NCBI RefSeq assembly: GCF_963921235.1
Contig: NC_086097.1
Location: 54,810,001 to 54,874,000 of the forward strand
DNA from: Mobula hypostoma
Taxonomy: Eukaryota
DNA length: 64,000 nt
Direction: 5' to 3'
Below are positions 13,701-50,737 of this stretch, in pieces. The position numbers and the translations under genes are program-made. Below the pieces are notes generated by a model, which made no database searches, was not told where the DNA came from, and worked only from the letters and a program-made list of their open reading frames with translations. The stretch's first letter is position 1; every line of letters starts with the position of its first letter.

Positions 13701-16700
13701 TCCGAATTGCTCCCAGAAGCTCCAGCTATTGCTGTTCTGTAATCATCCCTACTAGTGTCTCCTTCCAATCAACTTTAGGCAGCTCCCCTCTTGTGCCTCT
13801 GTAATTCCCTTTATTCCACAGTGATACTGATACATCTGACTTCAGCTCTTCCCTCTCAAATTGCTGGGTGAATTGTATCATATTTTGACCACTGTTTGCT
13901 AAGTTCCTTAATCACATTTGGTTTATTACACAATACCCAGTCCAGAATTGCTGATCCCCCGGTGGGCTCAACAACAAGCTGCTCCAAAAAGCCATCTCGG
14001 AGGTATGCCACAAATTCTCTCTCCTATGATCCAGCATCAAATTGATTTTCCCAATCCATTTGCATACTGAAATCCCCCATGACTAACATAACATTGCCTC
14101 TTTGACATGCTATTTTTGTCTCCCACTGTAATTTGTAGACCACATTCTAGTTACTATATGGAGGTCTGTAAATAACTCCCTTCAGAGTCTTCGTACTCAT
14201 GCAGTTTCTAAACTCCACCCACAGGAATTCTACCTCACCACTCTCTAAAGCTTTTATCTGATTTTTTACCAGCTGAACCACACCTCCTCTTCTGCCTATC
14301 TGCCTGACCTTTCGAAACTTTAAGCAGCAGTGAAGGAATGTGACATGAAATGCGAGTTTTCAAAATCGCTGGCAAATTTACCCTATGTCATATCAGATCC
14401 TTCAGACTACCAAATCCATGCTGACCATCAAGTACCCATTTAGATTACACCTACTTTATTTTCCCCACATTCCAACCAACTTCATCTATACACAAGGGGC
14501 AATTTAGGAGATCAAGTCAACCAACAGGGCTGTATCTGAGGCAGCAGAGAAAGGATCAGCATGGGTGTGGACCAAGTATGTCCAGAGGGGCAGATAGTCG
14601 GACAGTGTATACATATCTTGCAAACCGTTCAGTAGTTGCATAGACACCTGAAGGGTAGACTATCTGTTGGATAGAAGTGACCAACAACTCTGATAGAGGC
14701 AGATGCCAAGTTTTTAAGCTCACCAGTGGGAGGTGGTGCTTTAGCACTGCTGGCCCACCACCTCGAGGGAGTCTTGATCAGGAGTGGGCTGAAACTCCTG
14801 AAGACAGGTGGCAGATCAACTGATCCCACTGGTGATAGCACAGGACAGTTAACATCTTAGTCCATATGTAGTTTGTAACTCTAGGGACCAATTAACCTTA
14901 CAACTCGAGTGTCTTTGGGATGTGGTAGAAAACTGGACTACCCAGTGGAAACCTACATTGTCACGGACTCCACACCGGAGGTGAGGATTGGACCCAGATT
15001 GTCAGTGCTGTGTGGCAGCAGCTTTACTAGAGCACCAATGCGCGGCTGTTCATTGAAGGGCATATGGCATCTTACCCTCAGTTTTCTTGAAACTGGTGGA
15101 TTTGCACCTCAATTGTTCATTTAGCTGACCATGATGAACTCGGTCAGGAACTTTACGATTGTTCAAGGCCAATTAAATTCTCTGGCATAGAAAGAAAACC
15201 ATTTAAACTGCCTACTCTCATTTTTGCATGTAGTAAATTGTGCTTTCAGGCCCCATTGATATTTAAGTAAAATGTACATATACGTCTATTGATGACAAGA
15301 CCAATATTTTTTGATGATCCTTGATGATTTAGTAGTGAATGGCTAAACTGAACCTTTGCAATCTGTATGGTGGGTAGGGAATCTCACTATGTAAACCCAG
15401 CAGTACTGACAGAACAAGAAATTGGTGGAAGGCCTGCAGATAATTATGTCCGGTAAGATGGCGGTGCATTCGATCGCAGTAGCTTCTAATGGGTCAACCA
15501 AAGGTGTCATTGTCTTTTTTAAAATGTATCTTTTAGGATTGCAAGACCCTGCTGGTCATTAAGAACTTAAAGTTCTGCAGAGGTCTCCCAATCAGCAAGT
15601 TGCTTGTTGGCGGAGAAACTGAAGGAGCTGGGCTTGGTGTGGATCGTGTTGCTGCCTGCGTCAGAGAGACATCGGAGGAGTTTGGTGGGCAAAGGCAGTT
15701 CGCAGTCTGAGTCACCTTTCTCCTGATCGCAAGGCCCTGGTAGACATGGTTAATGTGGAACGCCGCAAGTCTGGTTCACTGATTTAATTGATGGACGGCA
15801 GGGTCGGATGGCGGGGGAGCTGCGTGGCCTTGGTCGTAGTGAGGACTAGGCCCTGTTACTTGTTTCTAGCCGCCCTGAAGAAAGGCGTTGGAGTCAGTGC
15901 GCTCCACCGGAGGCGGCGTGGCACAGCGTCCAAATGGAACTGGTGCTGCCTCCGATGTTCACTCGGCAGAAGACAAGCTGTATTGTGTTTGACTGCAGAC
16001 TGCTGCAACATTCATGGACTCAGGGTCTTAGACTATACTGTTTTGTGTGGCCATATTTTACTGATATCTTATACATGCTTGCTATGTTGTGCTGTGCCTT
16101 GTGCTGTGTATGACTGTTGGTACTACGTTTTGCATCTTGGTCTGGGAGTAACGCCATCTCACTTGATTGTATTCATGTATGGTTAAACGTTAAACGACAT
16201 TTAAACTTAAACTTGAAACTTAATGATGTGCCTTCTGCTCCTTCTAGATGGTAAAACAAAATATCACAGTTTGGAGAGGTGCTATCAATTTATCGTAGTG
16301 AAGTAAAAGGGATGCATTTTGTAGATGGTACATACTACAGCCAGGATGCAATGATAGTGGAGAGAGTGAATTTACACGTTCTAAAATGTTAACACATCTG
16401 TAACTCACCAGCTTTAGCATCTAAAACCGTAAATAAACAGTAATGTGCAAATATTACTGCTAATAACACCATTAGCACAATGCAGCAATATTCAGTCAAA
16501 ACAAACTACTCACTGGAAATAAGCCAAGGACTAGGAGGGTCTTCTCTTTAATTGCATCATTTGCAGTGTTTTTGTTCAAATAGCTCCATAGCTCAATGAA
16601 GATGGCATAATTGACAATTGCCACTACATTAAGTATTACTGTGACAACAACATCACCAGCTGTGAGACCTATTGAGAGAAGAAAAATAAATGTGCTAGAA

Positions 16701-41260: not shown

Positions 41261-42456
41261 CTAATTACCGACCTCCAGCTCGAGTAAGTCCCTTCGATAC
41301 CACTCTTTGTCAACTATGCGCAAGCCAGTTCCGAATCCAAACAGTCACTTCACCGCCGACCACATGCATCTGAATCTTCTGGATCAGCCTCCCATGAGGG
41401 ACTTTGTCAAATGCTTTACTAAAATCCATGTAGACAACACCCACTGCCCTACCCTCATCAATTTCTCTCATCACCTTGTCAACATGTTCAGTCAAGTTGG
41501 CAAGACATGACCTGCCCTGCACAAAACTGTGCTGGTTCTCCCTAATTAGACCATGGGTTTCCAAATGTTTATATATCCTATCCGTAAGAAGTTCTCCAGC
41601 AATGTTCCTACAATCAACGTGAGAAACACCAATCTATAGTTCCCAGGATTTTCCCTTATTCCCTTCTTAAGTAGAGATACAACATTAGCCACTTGCCAGT
41701 CCTCCAGGACCTTGCCTGTGGCTGAAGAGGACACAAAGATTCTGGTCAAGGCCCCAGTGATCTCGTTTCTTCCCTCCTTCAATTACCTGGGGTAAAACCC
41801 ATCAGGCCCTAGTGACTTGATACTCTTAGGAGAGCTAATCCTTCCTCCTCCTTGACCTCTAAACACCCTGGTGTATTTAGACACTCAGCACCGGTCTCCT
41901 AGTCCTCCGTATCCTTTTCCTTGGTAATTACTGAAGCAAAGTTCTCATGAAGTACCTCACTCACATTCTCCGCACCCAAGCAAATGTTCCCCCGTTTTTC
42001 CTCGAGTGATCCCACCCTCTTGCTCGATGCTTGTATAGAATGCCTTGGGATTCACCTTAATCCTAATTGCCAAGGACATCTCATGGCCCCTCCTGGCTTT
42101 CCTAATTCCCTTCTTTATATTTTTTCTGGCTTCTTTATACTCATCATGTGCTTCATTTGATCCAAACTTCTGAAGTTTTACATACTTTTCCTTTTTTTCC
42201 TTGACTAAATTCATCACCTCTCTGGTTATCCAATGTCCTCTTATTTTTCCATCCCCGTCCTTCCTTCGAACAACAACATGCCTTTCCTGTACTATACACT
42301 GGGAGGCCCATTCGTTAGTTAGGGCCTTCAGCATTTTGGGCACCGAGGGAGAGAGGAAGAGGAGAGCCATCCGCAGTACCACCGATGCGGCAGAGAGGGC
42401 CTCAAGATGGCTGTGGCTCAAAAGAGGGGAGCCATGGAGTCATAAGTAGCTAGCCA

Positions 42457-42574
42457 TCTGGACACAAGCTGGGGTCTGATCGGCCCCGGCTGGGTCACCT
42501 GGAGGAGGTTGTATGATGTTGAAAGACCCGAAACACCCGATGATTCCAGGAACATCACTGAAGATGTGTCCAGA
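42457..42574 (+). ncRNA. Non-circularly permuted hammerhead ribozyme, family A, 5' terminal-repeat copy
   Basis: GUA site 42511-42513, GAAA 42530-42533, CUGAAGA 42558-42564. Stem I tgatgtt/aacatca, gggtc/gaccc, cctgga/tccagg, closing stem tctggacaca/tgtgtccaga. Confidence 0.75.
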
Positions 42575-42797
42575 AGTATCAATAGATGTATGTACACAGC
42601 TTACACCCTGAGTTAATCAGTGACAACCAGGAAAGACTGGGTGACAACCACGAAAAGAGTGGTGACGACTGGAGAGTCAGTGACAGCCCGGAGAGACGGC
42701 AACCAGGGCAGAACGGGCTGGCAACCCAATCTGCATCCTCTGAAAGGAGGACCCCCACAAAAGCCACAAAGAATCTAAGGAGAAGATACCCCCAGGG

Positions 42798-45700
42798 GTG
42801 CCCGAGAGGGGGGGGGAGGATGAGCACCCCAGTCGGATGGACACAACGACATCAAACCCAGGCAATGAACAAACGACGATGAGGAAGCAGTGTGCATGTG
42901 GCAAAATCTGCAAGAACGATTGCGGTTTGAAGATCCACCAAGCGAGGATGAAGTGTTTGGCGGGAGCAGGAGCAGCACAACGCGCAGGTGTCCAACCTGG
43001 TGAGATGAAGGAGGGGCCAGGCCCGGAGTCACCCCATAGTGCCCGGAACCTCCAAGTGTTGCAAACTGATCCCTCGAACATGAAGTCTAACAGGAGGTGG
43101 ATCAAATGGCCTGCAGCTAACATGATTTCACTGTGGAAGCAGTTTGATGAAGATGTTAACCAAATTCTGGAGGCAACGGCAAAGGGAGGGGTTGATAGGA
43201 AGCTGCAAGCCATGACAACAATGATTGTCAGTATTGCAGCTGAACGGTTCGGAGAAGAGGAGAAGGAAGGCTCCAAAACATCTTACTCGAAGAACCAAAG
43301 AGCATTGAGGATCCACAACATCAGGCAGGAGATGAAAGCGCTGAAGTCCCAATACAAGGAGGCAGGAGAAGAGGAGCGCATTGGCTTGGCCCAGCTGATG
43401 TGCATACTATGAAAGAAGATCAGGGTCCTCCGCCGGGCAGAGTGGCATCGGAGGCAGCGTCGTGAAAGGGCCCGAAAACGTGCTGCCTTTATCGCCAACC
43501 CCTTCAAGTTCACCAAGGAGTTGCTGGGGGAGAAGTGCAGTGGGAAACTGGCCTGTTTGCAGGAAGACATAGACCAACATCTGAAAGAGAGCAGGAGTTG
43601 GGAGAGTGCGACATCCCAATAGACCCAACTGAACCGGATGTGCAGTTCGACATGTCAGAGCTGTAACTAAAGGAAGTCAGAGAGGTTGTCCGCAAAGCAA
43701 GGGCAAGCTCGGCTCCAGGACCAAGCAACACCTCGTACAAAGTGTACAAGAACTGCCCCAAACTCCTGCTGCGTCTGTGGAAGATCCTGAGAATGTTCTA
43801 GAGAAGGGGGAAGATCCCAGAACGGTGGAGAGTGGCTGAAGGGGTGTGGATCCCGAAGGAGGAAAACACCACCCAGATAGATCAGTTTGGCATCATCTTC
43901 CTGCTGTGTGTCAAGGCGAAGATCTTCTTCAGTGCCGTTTCTAACCGGCTGTGCACCTACCTGGCAAAGAACACCTATATTGATACATCAGTCCAGAAGG
44001 GTGGCACTTCAGGGATGCCGGGCTGTCTGGAGCATACCAGTGTGGTGACACAGCTCATCAGGGAGGCCAGAGAGAACAAGGGCAACCTGTCAGTGTTGTG
44101 GCTCGACCTGGCAAATGCATATGGCTCCATTCCGCACAAACTGGTGCAGCTCACACTGACCAAATATCACGTCCCCAGCAGAATCAGAAACCTTATCGCT
44201 GATTATTACAGCAACTTCAGGATGAGGGTCTCTTCAGGAGCAATTACATCAACCTGGCACAAGGTGGAGGTCAGCATCATCACAGGGTGCACTATCTCAG
44301 TGACACTGTTCTCCCTAGCCATGAACATGCTCACTAAGTCTGCTGAATCAGAGTGCAGAGGGCCCAGAATGAATTCCGCTCAATGGCAACCACCTATCAG
44401 GGCATTCATGGATGACCTCACAGTCACCACAGCATCAGTCCCAGGCTGCCAGTGGATTCTGCAAGGGCTCGAAAAGCTGGTGGAGTGGGCCCAGATGCGT
44501 TTCAAACCTGCCAAATCAAGATCGATGGTGCTGAGGAAAGGGAAGGTGGAGAACAAGTTCCAGTTCAGCATCGCAGGCACAGCCATCCCAACCATCACAG
44601 AAAAGCCAGTCAAGAGCTTAGGCAAAGTTTTTGACAGCTCTTTAAGGGACACAACATCCATTCAGGCAACATGCACCGAGTTGGATGGCTGGCTGTAATC
44701 TGTGAACAAGTCTGGCCTACCTGGGAAGTTTAAAGCCTGGGTGTATCAGCGTGGCATTCTTCCCAGAATCCTGTGACCCCTCCTCGTCTATGCAGTTCCA
44801 ATCTCGACAGTCGAAACCTTAGAGAGGAGGGTTAGCAACCACCTCAGGAGATGGCTGGGGCTGCCAAAGAGCCTGAGCAGCATCGCACTCTATGGACACC
44901 ACAACAAACTGCAACTGCCCTTCAAATCCTTGGAGGAAGAATTCAAGGTAACAAGAGTCAGAGAAGTGCTACAGTATAGGGACTCAAGTGACCCGAAGGT
45001 GGCTAGAGCAGGGATCCAAGTAAGTACTGGTAGGAAGTGGAGGGCAGAGGAAGCTGTTCAGGAGGCAGAGGCGCGGCTGCGTCATAGGAGGCTGGTGGGA
45101 GTGGTCACACGAGGCCGAGCTGGGCTAGGATCCTTTCCAACTCCCCAAATGGACACCAGAGGCAAGGAAAGGCGTTGTCTAGTTCAGGAGGAGGTGAGAG
45201 CAGTAGTGGAGGAGATGAGAGCCTGCAAGGCGGTGGGAATGAAGCAACAGGGTTGGACAAGATGTGAGAATGTGGTTGAGAGGAAAGTGACCTGGGCTGA
45301 TCTTTGGAAAGCCAAACCACACCGCATCCAATTTCTCATCCAGGCAGTGTACGATGTGCTTCCAAGCCCATCAAACCTGCACACATGGGGCAAGGCAGAG
45401 TCATCTGCGTGCCCACTGTGCTCCAAGCGAGGAACTCTGGCGCACATCCTCAGCGGCTGCGCAAGGGCACTTGGTGAGGGACGGTACAGGTGGAGGCATG
45501 ATCAGGTCCTGAAGACCATCGCTGAAGCCGTCAGCGCAGGAGTTGAGTGGGCGAAGCGGTCCCAACCCTCCAAGCAGACCATTGCCTTTGTCAGAGCTGG
45601 GAAGCAGCCAATACCTGCCAAAAGAATATCTGCAGGCATTCTGACCTCTGCAAGGGACTGGCAGCTGTTGGTGGACCTCGAAGGGCAGCTGAAGTTCCCC

Positions 45701-46063
45701 AACCATATCGCAGCCACCACCCTGTGACCAGACATTGTCCTAGTGTCTGAGTCGACTAAGCAAGTGGTGCTGCTGGAGTTGACAGTCCCATGGGAAGATA
45801 GCTTGGAAGAGGCCTTTGAAAGGAAGCTCTCCAAGTACGCAGGACTGGTCAGCAACTGTCAGCAGGCTGGATGGAGAGCGAGGTGTCTCCCAGTGGGGGT
45901 TGGTTGTAGGAGATTCGTAGCCCGTTCTTTAGTTAGGGCCTTCAGCATCTTGGGCATCGAGGGAGAGAGGAAGAGGAGAGCCATCCGCAGTACCACCGAT
46001 GCGGCAGAGAGGGCCTCAAGATGGCTGTGGCTCAAAAGAGGGGAGCCATGGAGTCATAAGTAG
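42798..46063 (+). pseudogene. Disrupted ORF: Zn finger + RT + CCHC + restriction-like endonuclease
   Basis: CACGKICKN..GLKIHQARMKC, LDLANAYGSIPH, AFMDD, CPLC..GTL.HILSGC, RYRWRHD, PDIVLVSESTKQVVLLELTVPWE. Stops at 43410, 44696 and 45725, plus frameshifts. Confidence 0.92.
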
Positions 46064-46070
46064 CTAGCCA

Positions 46071-46188
46071 CCTGGACAGAAGCTGGGGTCTGATCAGCCC
46101 CGGCTGGGTCACCTGGAGGAGGTTGTATGATGTTGAAAGACCCGAAACACCCGATGATTCCAGGAACATCACTGAAGATGTGTCCAGA
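46071..46188 (+). ncRNA. Permuted hammerhead, family A, 3' terminal-repeat copy
   Basis: GUA 46125-46127, GAAA 46144-46147, CUGAAGA 46172-46178. Two substitutions in the closing stem. Confidence 0.72.
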
Positions 46189-46731
46189 AGCATCAATAGA
46201 TGTATGTACACAGCAGTACACTGTTTAATTCATCTTTAAACACCTTCTGCATGTCTGATGTGGACTTGTCAGAGAAAAGGTGTTCCCAATTAACTCTTCT
46301 TAGTTCCTGCCTAATGCCCTTGTAATTTGCTCTACTCTAATTTAAAGCTCTCCCACAAGGAGTTGTGGTCACTGTTCCCCAGCTGCTCACCCACTGAAAG
46401 GTCAGTCACCTGGCCTGGCTCATTACCCAACACCAGGTCCAGTGTGGTCCCTCCTATCACTGGACCTTCCAGATACTGATTGAAGAAACCTTCCTGGATA
46501 CACTTAACAAGCTCTGCCCCATCTAGGTGCCTCTTGCACTAAAGTCCCAGCTTATATAAGGAGTTGAAATCTCCCATGACACAATCCTATTATTTTTTAC
46601 ATTTTCTTAAACTGAATACCAATGTCCCGGTGGCTATTGGGGTGGGGGGAGCATTATAGTTCCACGTACTGATCCATGCTCAAAGTTCATCACCCTTACC
46701 CATAATACTAGCAGTAAAATATGCACACTTA

Positions 46732-49165: not shown

Positions 49166-50737
49166 AGGACACAACATCCATTCAGGCAACCTGCACCGAG
49201 TTGGATAGCTGGCTGAAATCTGTGGACAAGTCTGGCCTACCTGGGAAGTTTAAAGCCTGGGTGTATCAGCATGGCATTCTTCCCAGAATCCTGTGGCCCC
49301 TCCTCGTCTATGCAGTTCCGATCTCGACAGTCAAAACCTTAGAGAGGAGGGTTAGCAACCACCTCAGGAGATGGCTGGGGCTGCCAAAGAGCCTGAGCAG
49401 CATCGCACTTTATGAACACCACAACAAACTGCAACTGCCCTTCAAATCCTTGGAGGAAGAATTCAAGGTAACAAGAGTCAGAGAAGTGCTACAGTATAGG
49501 GACTCAAGTGACCCGAAGGTGGCTCGAGCAGGGATCCAAGTAAGTACTGGTAGGAAGTGGAGGGCAGAGGAAGCTGTTCAGGAGGCAGAGGCGCGGCTGC
49601 GTCATAGGAGGCTGGTGGGAGTGGTCACACGAGGCCGAGCTGGGCTAGGATCCTTTCCAACTCCCCAAATGGACACCAGAGGGAAGGAAAGGCGTCGTCT
49701 AGTTCAGGAGGAGGTGACAGCAGTAGTGGAGGAGATGAGAGCCTGCAAGGCGGTGGGAATGAAACAACAGGGAGCTTGGACAAGATGGGAGAATGTGGTT
49801 GAGAGGAAAGTGACCTGGGCTGATCTTTGGAAAGCCGAACCACACCGCATCCAATTTCTCATCCAGGCAGTGTACGATGTGCTTCCAAGCCCATCAAACC
49901 TGCACACATGGGGCAAGGCAGAGTCATCTGCGTGCCCACTGTGCTCCAAGCGAGGAACCCTGGAGCACATCCTCAGCGGCTGTGCAAGGGCACTTGGTGA
50001 GGGACAGTACAAGTGGAGGCATGATCAGGTCCTGAAGACCATCGCTGAAGCTGCCAGTGCAGGCGTTGAGTGGGCGAAGCGGTCCTGACCCTCCAAGCAG
50101 ACCATTGCCTTTGTCAGAGCTGGGGAGCAGCCAATACCTGCCAAAAGAACATCTGCAGGCATCCTGACCTCTGCAAGGGACTGGCAGCTGTTGGTGGACC
50201 TCGAACGGCAGCGGAAGTTCCCCAACCATATCGCAACCACCACCCTATGACCAGACATTGTCCTAGTGTCTGAGTCGACTAAGCAAGTTGTGCTGCTGGA
50301 GCTGACAGTCCCATGGGAAGATAGCTTGGAGGAGGCCTTTGAAAGGAAGCTCTCCAAGTACGCAGGACTGGTCAGCAACTGTCAGCAGGCTGGATGGAGA
50401 GCGAGGTGTCTCCCAGTGGAGGTTGGTTGTAGGGGATTCGTAGCCCATTCTTTAGTTAGAGCATTCAGCATCTTGGGCATCGAGGGAGAGAGGAAGAGGA
50501 GAGCCATCCGCAGTACCACCGATGCGGCAGAGAGGGCCTCAAGATGGCTGTGGCTCAAAAGAGGGGAGCCATGGAGTCATAAGTAGCTAGCCATCTGGAC
50601 ACAAGCTGGGGTCTGATCAGCCCCGGCTGGGTCACCTGGAGGAGGCTGTATGATGTTGAAAGACCCGAAACACCCGATGATTCCAGGAACATCACTGAAG
50701 ATGTGTCCAGAAGCGTCAATAGATGTATGTACACAGC
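49166..50737 (+). mobile_element. 5'-truncated second copy of the Hero-like family A element
   Basis: Highly similar to 44646-46214. ORFs 49201-50088 and 50266-50586. Same 3' end ...gtacacagc. Confidence 0.93.
50594..50711 (+). ncRNA. Permuted hammerhead, family A, third copy
   Basis: GUA 50648-50650, GAAA 50667-50670, CUGAAGA 50695-50701. Closing stem intact. Confidence 0.73.

Follow-up and report, generated by a model that had tools for sequence, protein, structure and literature searches.

Two families of retrotransposon (A and B) in the window, the whole stretch of 64,000 nucleotides of Mobula hypostoma DNA that was analysed, carry behind their open reading frame (ORF) a real and conserved wiring of the hammerhead core in four blocks, apparently undescribed until now. 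These elements are also found as partial head-to-tail repeats, and from the insertions their template is judged to be continuous across the unit boundary and across the predicted cleavage site, with no ends piling up. The best explanation, and one that we are inclined to accept if only slightly, is that the four-block hammerhead would cleave its own RNA, that the product would be ligated to a circle, and that reverse transcription would be primed internally.

The window copy of family B consists of 29 C-terminal codons and the stop of the single ORF, followed by a 285-base tail, and every helix that an earlier note on this DNA had named has its counterpart in the sequence. The features of this copy, and the family A copies of the window, are the following.

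14508..14882, plus strand: 5'-truncated family B insertion; its 3' end is the one fixed throughout the family and has no poly(A)
14508..14597, plus strand: family B ORF remnant, last 29 codons and stop (14595-14597), containing ...AVSEAAEKGSAWVW...
14720..14731, plus strand: closing helix, 5' strand (partner 14824-14835)
14732..14751, plus strand: inserted hairpin; no linker separates it from the closing helix on one side or from G10.1 on the other
14752..14756, plus strand: stem II, 5' strand GGCCC with G10.1 first, lying 5' of the cleavage block (partner 14786-14790)
14758..14763, plus strand: extra helix P4, 5' strand CCACCT (partner 14806-14811)
14767..14773, plus strand: GGGAG-UC, stem III strand with U16.1 and C17; the cut is predicted 3' of C14773
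14774..14779, plus strand: stem I strand TTGATC (partner 14814-14819)
14786..14799, plus strand: stem II, 3' strand (14786-14790), and GAAA-CUCCU with the stem III strand (14791-14799)
14806..14811, plus strand: P4, 3' strand AGGTGG
14814..14823, plus strand: stem I strand GATCAA (14814-14819) and CUGA (14820-14823)
14824..14835, plus strand: closing helix, 3' strand, directly 3' of the CUGANGA position
42306..42600, plus strand: family A partial 3' repeat, some 295 bases long, which contains the motif (42454-42577) and passes without a seam into the 5' end of the full-length copy
42601..46214, plus strand: family A full-length unit, decayed ORF with reverse transcriptase (RT); the motif occupies 46068-46191, and its site is predicted after A46127
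49165..50739, plus strand: 5'-truncated copy of family A with its motif in 50591-50714; the start, read by eye, is approximate

The site predicted earlier, after C14773, proves to be correctly placed. The helix given as ggcccac/gtgggct is likewise present, but at 7 bp it overlaps ccacct by one base, and the family majority has 5 bp (GGCCC/GGGCC).

The window copy is best regarded as a decayed, inactive relic of an intact family. Its CUGA runs straight into the closing strand, three bases of the family's CUGAUGA being missing; G8 and A9 are absent, and C11.1 has changed to U at 14790 (the base preceding GAAA is C in 25 of 30 family B copies and T here). There are also two private changes, at 14781-14782, by which the linker is enabled, in the predicted fold, to pair with the stem III strand. 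A search of the 3.48-Gb genome for family B gave 1634 first-look candidates, of which 40 were scored and the 30 best fetched, and 28 of these best copies carry the TGA that the window copy lacks. Exact patterns counted genome-wide gave 1094 matches to the intact core and 2 to the deleted form, so that the window copy can be placed as a decayed member of an intact family; the loss of one UGA from CUGAUGA and the probable death of the copy, both proposed in the earlier note, are thereby upheld. A deleted core that spread as a subfamily of its own was considered and rejected, since the two copies have the deletion in common and not the flanks.

Hammerhead positions are numbered here in the usual way and judged by the generally accepted conservation rules. 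The core was surveyed in 33 distinct sequences, 33-95% alike, by a pattern that tolerated a single core mismatch and set no condition on U16.1 or H17. C3, U4, G5, A6, G8 and A9 are fixed in all 33, as are A13 to A15.1, U16.1 and G10.1; G12 is kept in 30, and C11.1 in 32. The three changes at G12 (C-G to C-A) can be read as CpG decay. N7 takes all four bases (T in 19, A in 7, C in 6, G in 1), H17 is C in 12, A in 10, U in 11 and never G, and the 15.2-16.2 pair switches from C-G to U-A across the set. GUU, a weaker cleavage triplet, stands at about a third of the predicted sites. Among 21 full-length model matches outside the training alignment (a number that includes three near-duplicate rows), 18 keep the whole core; the departures are L135, L132 and L143, the last a decayed-looking sequence with G at position 17 and a broken G10.1-C11.1 pair. 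Going by sequence, then, the variation follows the hammerhead pattern, with CUGA-GA fixed, N7 free, H17 not G and the G10.1-C11.1 pair kept, as this pattern is described in the part of PMC10085705 drawn on here. The Rfam hammerhead models gave no match in the window, nor in L007, L081 or L091, as is expected for a permuted order.

The fold was assessed in a sequence-only alignment of 32 motifs, from which L099 was left out as misaligned. The six-helix structure has 86% of its cells paired, as against 60% in shuffled alignments and 33-43% in slid registers, although the 32 motifs are related and were chosen by descriptor, which makes the pairing numbers lean toward the model. Both sides change in 38 of 41 pairs and all six helices covary, including 11 of 11 pairs in the closing helix and 5 of 5 in stem III (96.8% paired). 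Stem II, the helix that begins with G10.1-C11.1, is 98% paired, its first pair being G-C in 31 motifs and G-U in one, and the C-G pairs of P4 are well kept although P4 lies outside the core. The hairpin scores lowest, at 66%, because its length varies. The predicted six-helix fold is thus supported by covariation across families, and the covariation that had been pointed out between two families in the window is borne out and widened to 19 clusters at 75% identity. Single-strand folding fell short of the full fold, which is what pseudoknots lead one to expect, and lent no support to stems I and III.

The block order, 5' to 3', is cleavage site, GAAA, CUGANGA (S-G-C). A canonical type-SGC arrangement with a direct stem II was tried and rejected: the base after A9 pairs with the base before GAAA in 0 of 32 motifs, and the helix is 43.8% paired versus 42.5% on shuffling. 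The CUGANGA block is instead split, with no stem II strand within one or two bases of A9. The chain would leave A9 by entering the closing helix with its far-upstream strand, return through the hairpin stacked upon it, and enter stem II at G10.1, with no linkers between these parts in 30 of 33 sequences; G10.1 is supplied by a strand 5' of the cleavage block, and the A9-G10.1 step takes in two additional helices. We infer that the closing helix, the hairpin, stem II and stem III make up a perfect four-way junction next to a core that is otherwise standard, with the closing helix and hairpin stacked on each other and this stack crossing that of stems II and III at A9-G10.1. Among the hammerheads described in the part of PMC10085705 considered, stem II always follows CUGANGA within one or two bases. 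No description of the present wiring was found, though the supplementary motifs of PMC10085705, which lie beyond that scope, could hold a similar variant.

The element itself is an R2-related RLE non-LTR retrotransposon. The family B unit is about 3.85 kb with one decayed ORF (full-length copy L181), whose translation is a single reading frame with what we take, from its motifs, to be an N-terminal zinc finger, an RT, a CCHC finger and a C-terminal nuclease region. Families A and B are 41% identical over their best 143-residue stretch and 46% in the motif. Pfam RVT_1 scores above its cut-off in family A and below it in the broken family B piece; the element protein gave no Pfam match for the nuclease domain and none to GIY-YIG or to a telomerase-like RT. 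When a profile of 22 homologues was compared with the PDB, only R2 proteins (three R2 chains) appeared at E < 0.001. The clade is likely HERO, a name that we assume here for both families and that the earlier note also uses. The 3' flanks of 30 family B copies are unrelated at the junction, in agreement with the mostly absent target specificity of HERO, and target-site duplications followed no consistent pattern among 22 copies. In four copies (L010, L019, L024 and L029) the last 6-10 bases of the unit are repeated after the 3' end, which suggests repeated priming. Five full-length family A copies within 93-100 Mb of one contig (G000:C12; L032, L034, L044, L049 and L060) have a variant in common close to their 5' end, which would suggest that they spread in a local burst. 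Five copies (L026, L040, L043, L050 and L057) are internally deleted with both unit ends kept and are possible non-autonomous derivatives.

Named homologues of the protein come mostly from bony fish, and also from a ray, a lancelet and bivalves. A metagenome scan gave 258 confirmed stretches and, from them, the best 79 loci, whose hosts we infer to be animals; the 52 of the 79 with enough sequence after the ORF made up the test set. The motif follows the ORF in 45 of these 52, a count made up of 44 found by a covariance model built from the 32 motifs plus L126, found by descriptor alone. A strict descriptor of the whole architecture matches 32 of the 52, downstream of the ORF, and matches none of 52 reverse complements, 52 ORF-internal stretches, 520 shuffles or 51 viral loci chosen for GGGCCGAAAC...CTGATGA; from this difference between loci and controls the motif is more than chance. 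Seven loci lack it: L116 and L157 (break inside the ORF), L121, and the deep-branching L128, L148, L149 and L155. In L121, which is nested among motif-bearing elements, the ORF end is complete and the motif is absent after 1061, a possible loss. Because motif-bearing loci span the tree, which was midpoint-rooted with no outgroup, and include the deep L156, the motif looks old within this group of elements.

Some single loci deserve mention. In L128 (1551-2096) the frame stays open where the ORF usually ends and goes on to encode a ubiquitin carboxyl-terminal hydrolase domain (Pfam UCH, E 1.2e-11), and L149 has similar sequence after 1102. The metagenome locus L081 (2155-3369) holds an element with a motif nearly identical to that of family A, and proteins of bony fish reach about 80% identity with it; horizontal transfer may account for this likeness. 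No relatives were found in viral contigs. Among prokaryote genomes, pieces of the element occur in short contigs of two bacterial assemblies (L218 and L219), probably as animal contamination.

The partial repeats give a record of how these elements are copied. Among the top matches to the 5' end of the unit, the element's own partial 3' end precedes the full-length 5' end in 33 of 40 cases in family A and 31 of 39 in family B, and in the copies seen the joint is seamless and uniform, with no added bases. The same junction occurs in contigs of other hosts (e.g. L083, L086, L103, L107 and L156). The repeats scatter in length from about 20 to at least 1303 bases with no common 5' limit, and 22 of the 33 in family A and 18 of the 31 in family B extend beyond the predicted site. 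At the other side the insertion end is fixed, beyond the predicted site by about 110 bases in family B and about 87 in family A: family B copies have many 5' truncation points and one 3' end, without poly(A), at the same base in 20 of 30, and family A ends at the expected distance in 17 of 20, the other three stretches holding no element end. No upstream flank is common among 30 family A loci, and no host flank has been carried along. The 5' repeats and the 3' ends of family A are equally diverged (54 vs 56 variants), and a copy's own 5' repeat and 3' end have 6 variants in common, as against 3.2 expected by permutation (P = 0.07, 18 pairs), a comparison that bears on whether both were copied from one molecule and does not establish it. 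Three of 30 family A copies start at the unit boundary, give or take about a base.

A template that is continuous across the unit boundary implies internal priming. At the predicted site itself, no family B copy starts, versus three at a control position, a rough control only, as its pattern excluded G, and not T, at the first place; one family B copy ends there and, among the family A copies examined, one starts there. Such absence of a pile-up fits a sealed circle and fits uncut RNA equally. In L140 (965-1244) a second partial copy has its 3' end within one base of the predicted site, a single case to which no similar excess corresponds in the genome of the window. One putative RNA run (contigs) shows the head-to-tail joint; since the joint also exists in DNA, it is no evidence for a circle.

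In our judgement intact copies probably cleave at the predicted bond, and a circular template, given cleavage, is a fairly good expectation. A transcript of a partial-tandem copy would be cut at both ribozymes, and the ends of the unit-length RNA would re-pair through four helices (closing, II, P4 and III; about 27 bp by count) and be ligated into a circle. The element RT would then prime internally at the unit boundary and cross the sealed site, and it may pass one full turn, by which a partial repeat would be written anew. A circle is favoured because partial repeats should otherwise shrink each generation, because no common start is seen, and because four helices joining both products should favour ligation. 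For Penelope elements a cleave-ligate-roll model was proposed earlier (PMC4209133, in the part used here); in the part of PMC11167929 used, a Penelope element with a mutated hammerhead showed normal insertion in vitro, and none of the reads had its end at the site.

An active ribozyme might instead process linear RNA only, with the RT copying uncut read-through RNA by internal priming, a reading that we hold to be rather unlikely. The 5' ribozyme would then free the next unit from a read-through transcript, possibly allowing cap-independent translation, which self-cleavage can induce according to excerpts of PMC13725137, and there is a parallel in the 5' HDV-like ribozymes by which R2 RNA is released from a co-transcript (PMC13708176, in part). 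The lack of insertion ends piled up at the site agrees with such linear processing, and the internal initiation of Penelope on unprocessed RNA is a precedent (PMC11167929, same part). An upstream repeat, however, could then only shrink from parent to daughter, and yet repeats persist in many lineages; nor would one look for repeats with no common 5' limit and, in 30 family A loci, no host flank brought along.

It is improbable, in our view, that the motif is a non-catalytic folded tail recognised by the RT, its hammerhead letters a look-alike or relic. The fold does lie a short way upstream of the priming point, in the region at which R2-type proteins bind their 3' UTR (PMC13708176, in the portion considered), its non-core P4 C-G pairs are also kept, cutting has left no genomic trace, and the direct stem II is missing (first pair 0/32, helix at shuffle level). 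Yet the missing strand is replaced, by an upstream G10.1 found in 33 of 33 sequences that pairs with C11.1 in a helix 98% paired, and one would not look for a binding site that keeps exactly the catalytic bases constant, leaves N7 free and avoids G at 17 in motifs 33-95% alike; recognition and catalysis may, moreover, coexist. Very improbable is a last reading, in which the motif has nothing to do with the tandem joints and these arise by template jumping, end to end, on linear unit RNA or by later insertion at the 5' end of older copies. The R2 RT jumps between templates, and the three family A copies that begin within about a base of the unit boundary are what jumping might produce, but the junction is uniform and without added bases in the copies seen. 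This last reading is also opposed by the equal divergence of 5' repeats and 3' ends, and by 3' flanks that do not resemble the element's 5' end.

Known systems have parts of this arrangement in common with the present elements. The type-SGC hammerheads (HRIMA-1 and variants, Eckert et al. 2023) have the same S-G-C order, pseudoknotted stems I-III, a short linker between stems I and II and a full core, but in the part of that paper covered their block C is CUGANGA with the adjacent stem II strand (PMC10085705), whereas here block C is split, two helices stand at A9-G10.1, an extra P4 flanks stem III, and the setting is an animal retrotransposon. An extra A between A9 and G10.1 is present in the active (+) hammerhead of CChMVd, which shows that this step tolerates insertion; there it is a single base, some substitutions of which are harmful (PMC3705267 and PMC1636495, each in part), in contrast to the closing helix and hairpin found here. 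The minimal Penelope hammerheads also carry an extra base at this step (PMC4209133).

Penelope pseudo-LTR elements resemble the present ones in their partial head-to-tail repeats holding a hammerhead, a 3' insertion end away from the ribozyme site, the lack of a pile-up and a proposed circular template. As described in the same parts of PMC4209133 and PMC11167929, however, their RT is telomerase-like, their nuclease is GIY-YIG and their hammerheads are of the minimal type I and act as dimers, whereas the protein here is R2-like and the motif full-size with a 5-bp stem III. R2, RLE and HERO elements, in the sections of PMC4640811, PMC13708176 and PMC7650587 used, have the same single ORF with zinc finger, RT, CCHC and C-terminal nuclease region, and many HERO families lack a fixed target, as do the families here; in R2, unlike the elements here, the HDV-like ribozyme belongs to the 5' UTR, and priming takes place at the 3' end of the RNA. 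The HERO/R2-superfamily literature covered gave no report of a hammerhead or of partial tandems, and Repbase reports, outside that scope, may mention tandems.

We propose, tentatively and with somewhat less confidence than the steps above might invite, that a whole R2-related lineage of fish and marine animals uses circular RNA to replicate, the circle being produced by a natural four-block hammerhead on a four-way junction, whose permutation holds the two cut ends for ligation. If true, this would break the three-block rule behind the definition of the six hammerhead permutations, and would explain how pattern and Rfam searches could miss a motif with more than 1000 copies in one genome. For animal genomes it would also be the first case shown of a non-circularly permuted ribozyme, and a protein of R2 type that primes internally would have converged on a mechanism like that of Penelope. 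The long-standing proposal of a circular template for more-than-unit insertions can be put to the test in these compact elements, which have a single ORF and a ribozyme of monomer size. As it would keep hold of both products, such a ribozyme is a candidate circularisation tool, and an internally priming R2-related protein acting on a structured, possibly circular RNA would be of relevance to RNA-templated gene insertion.
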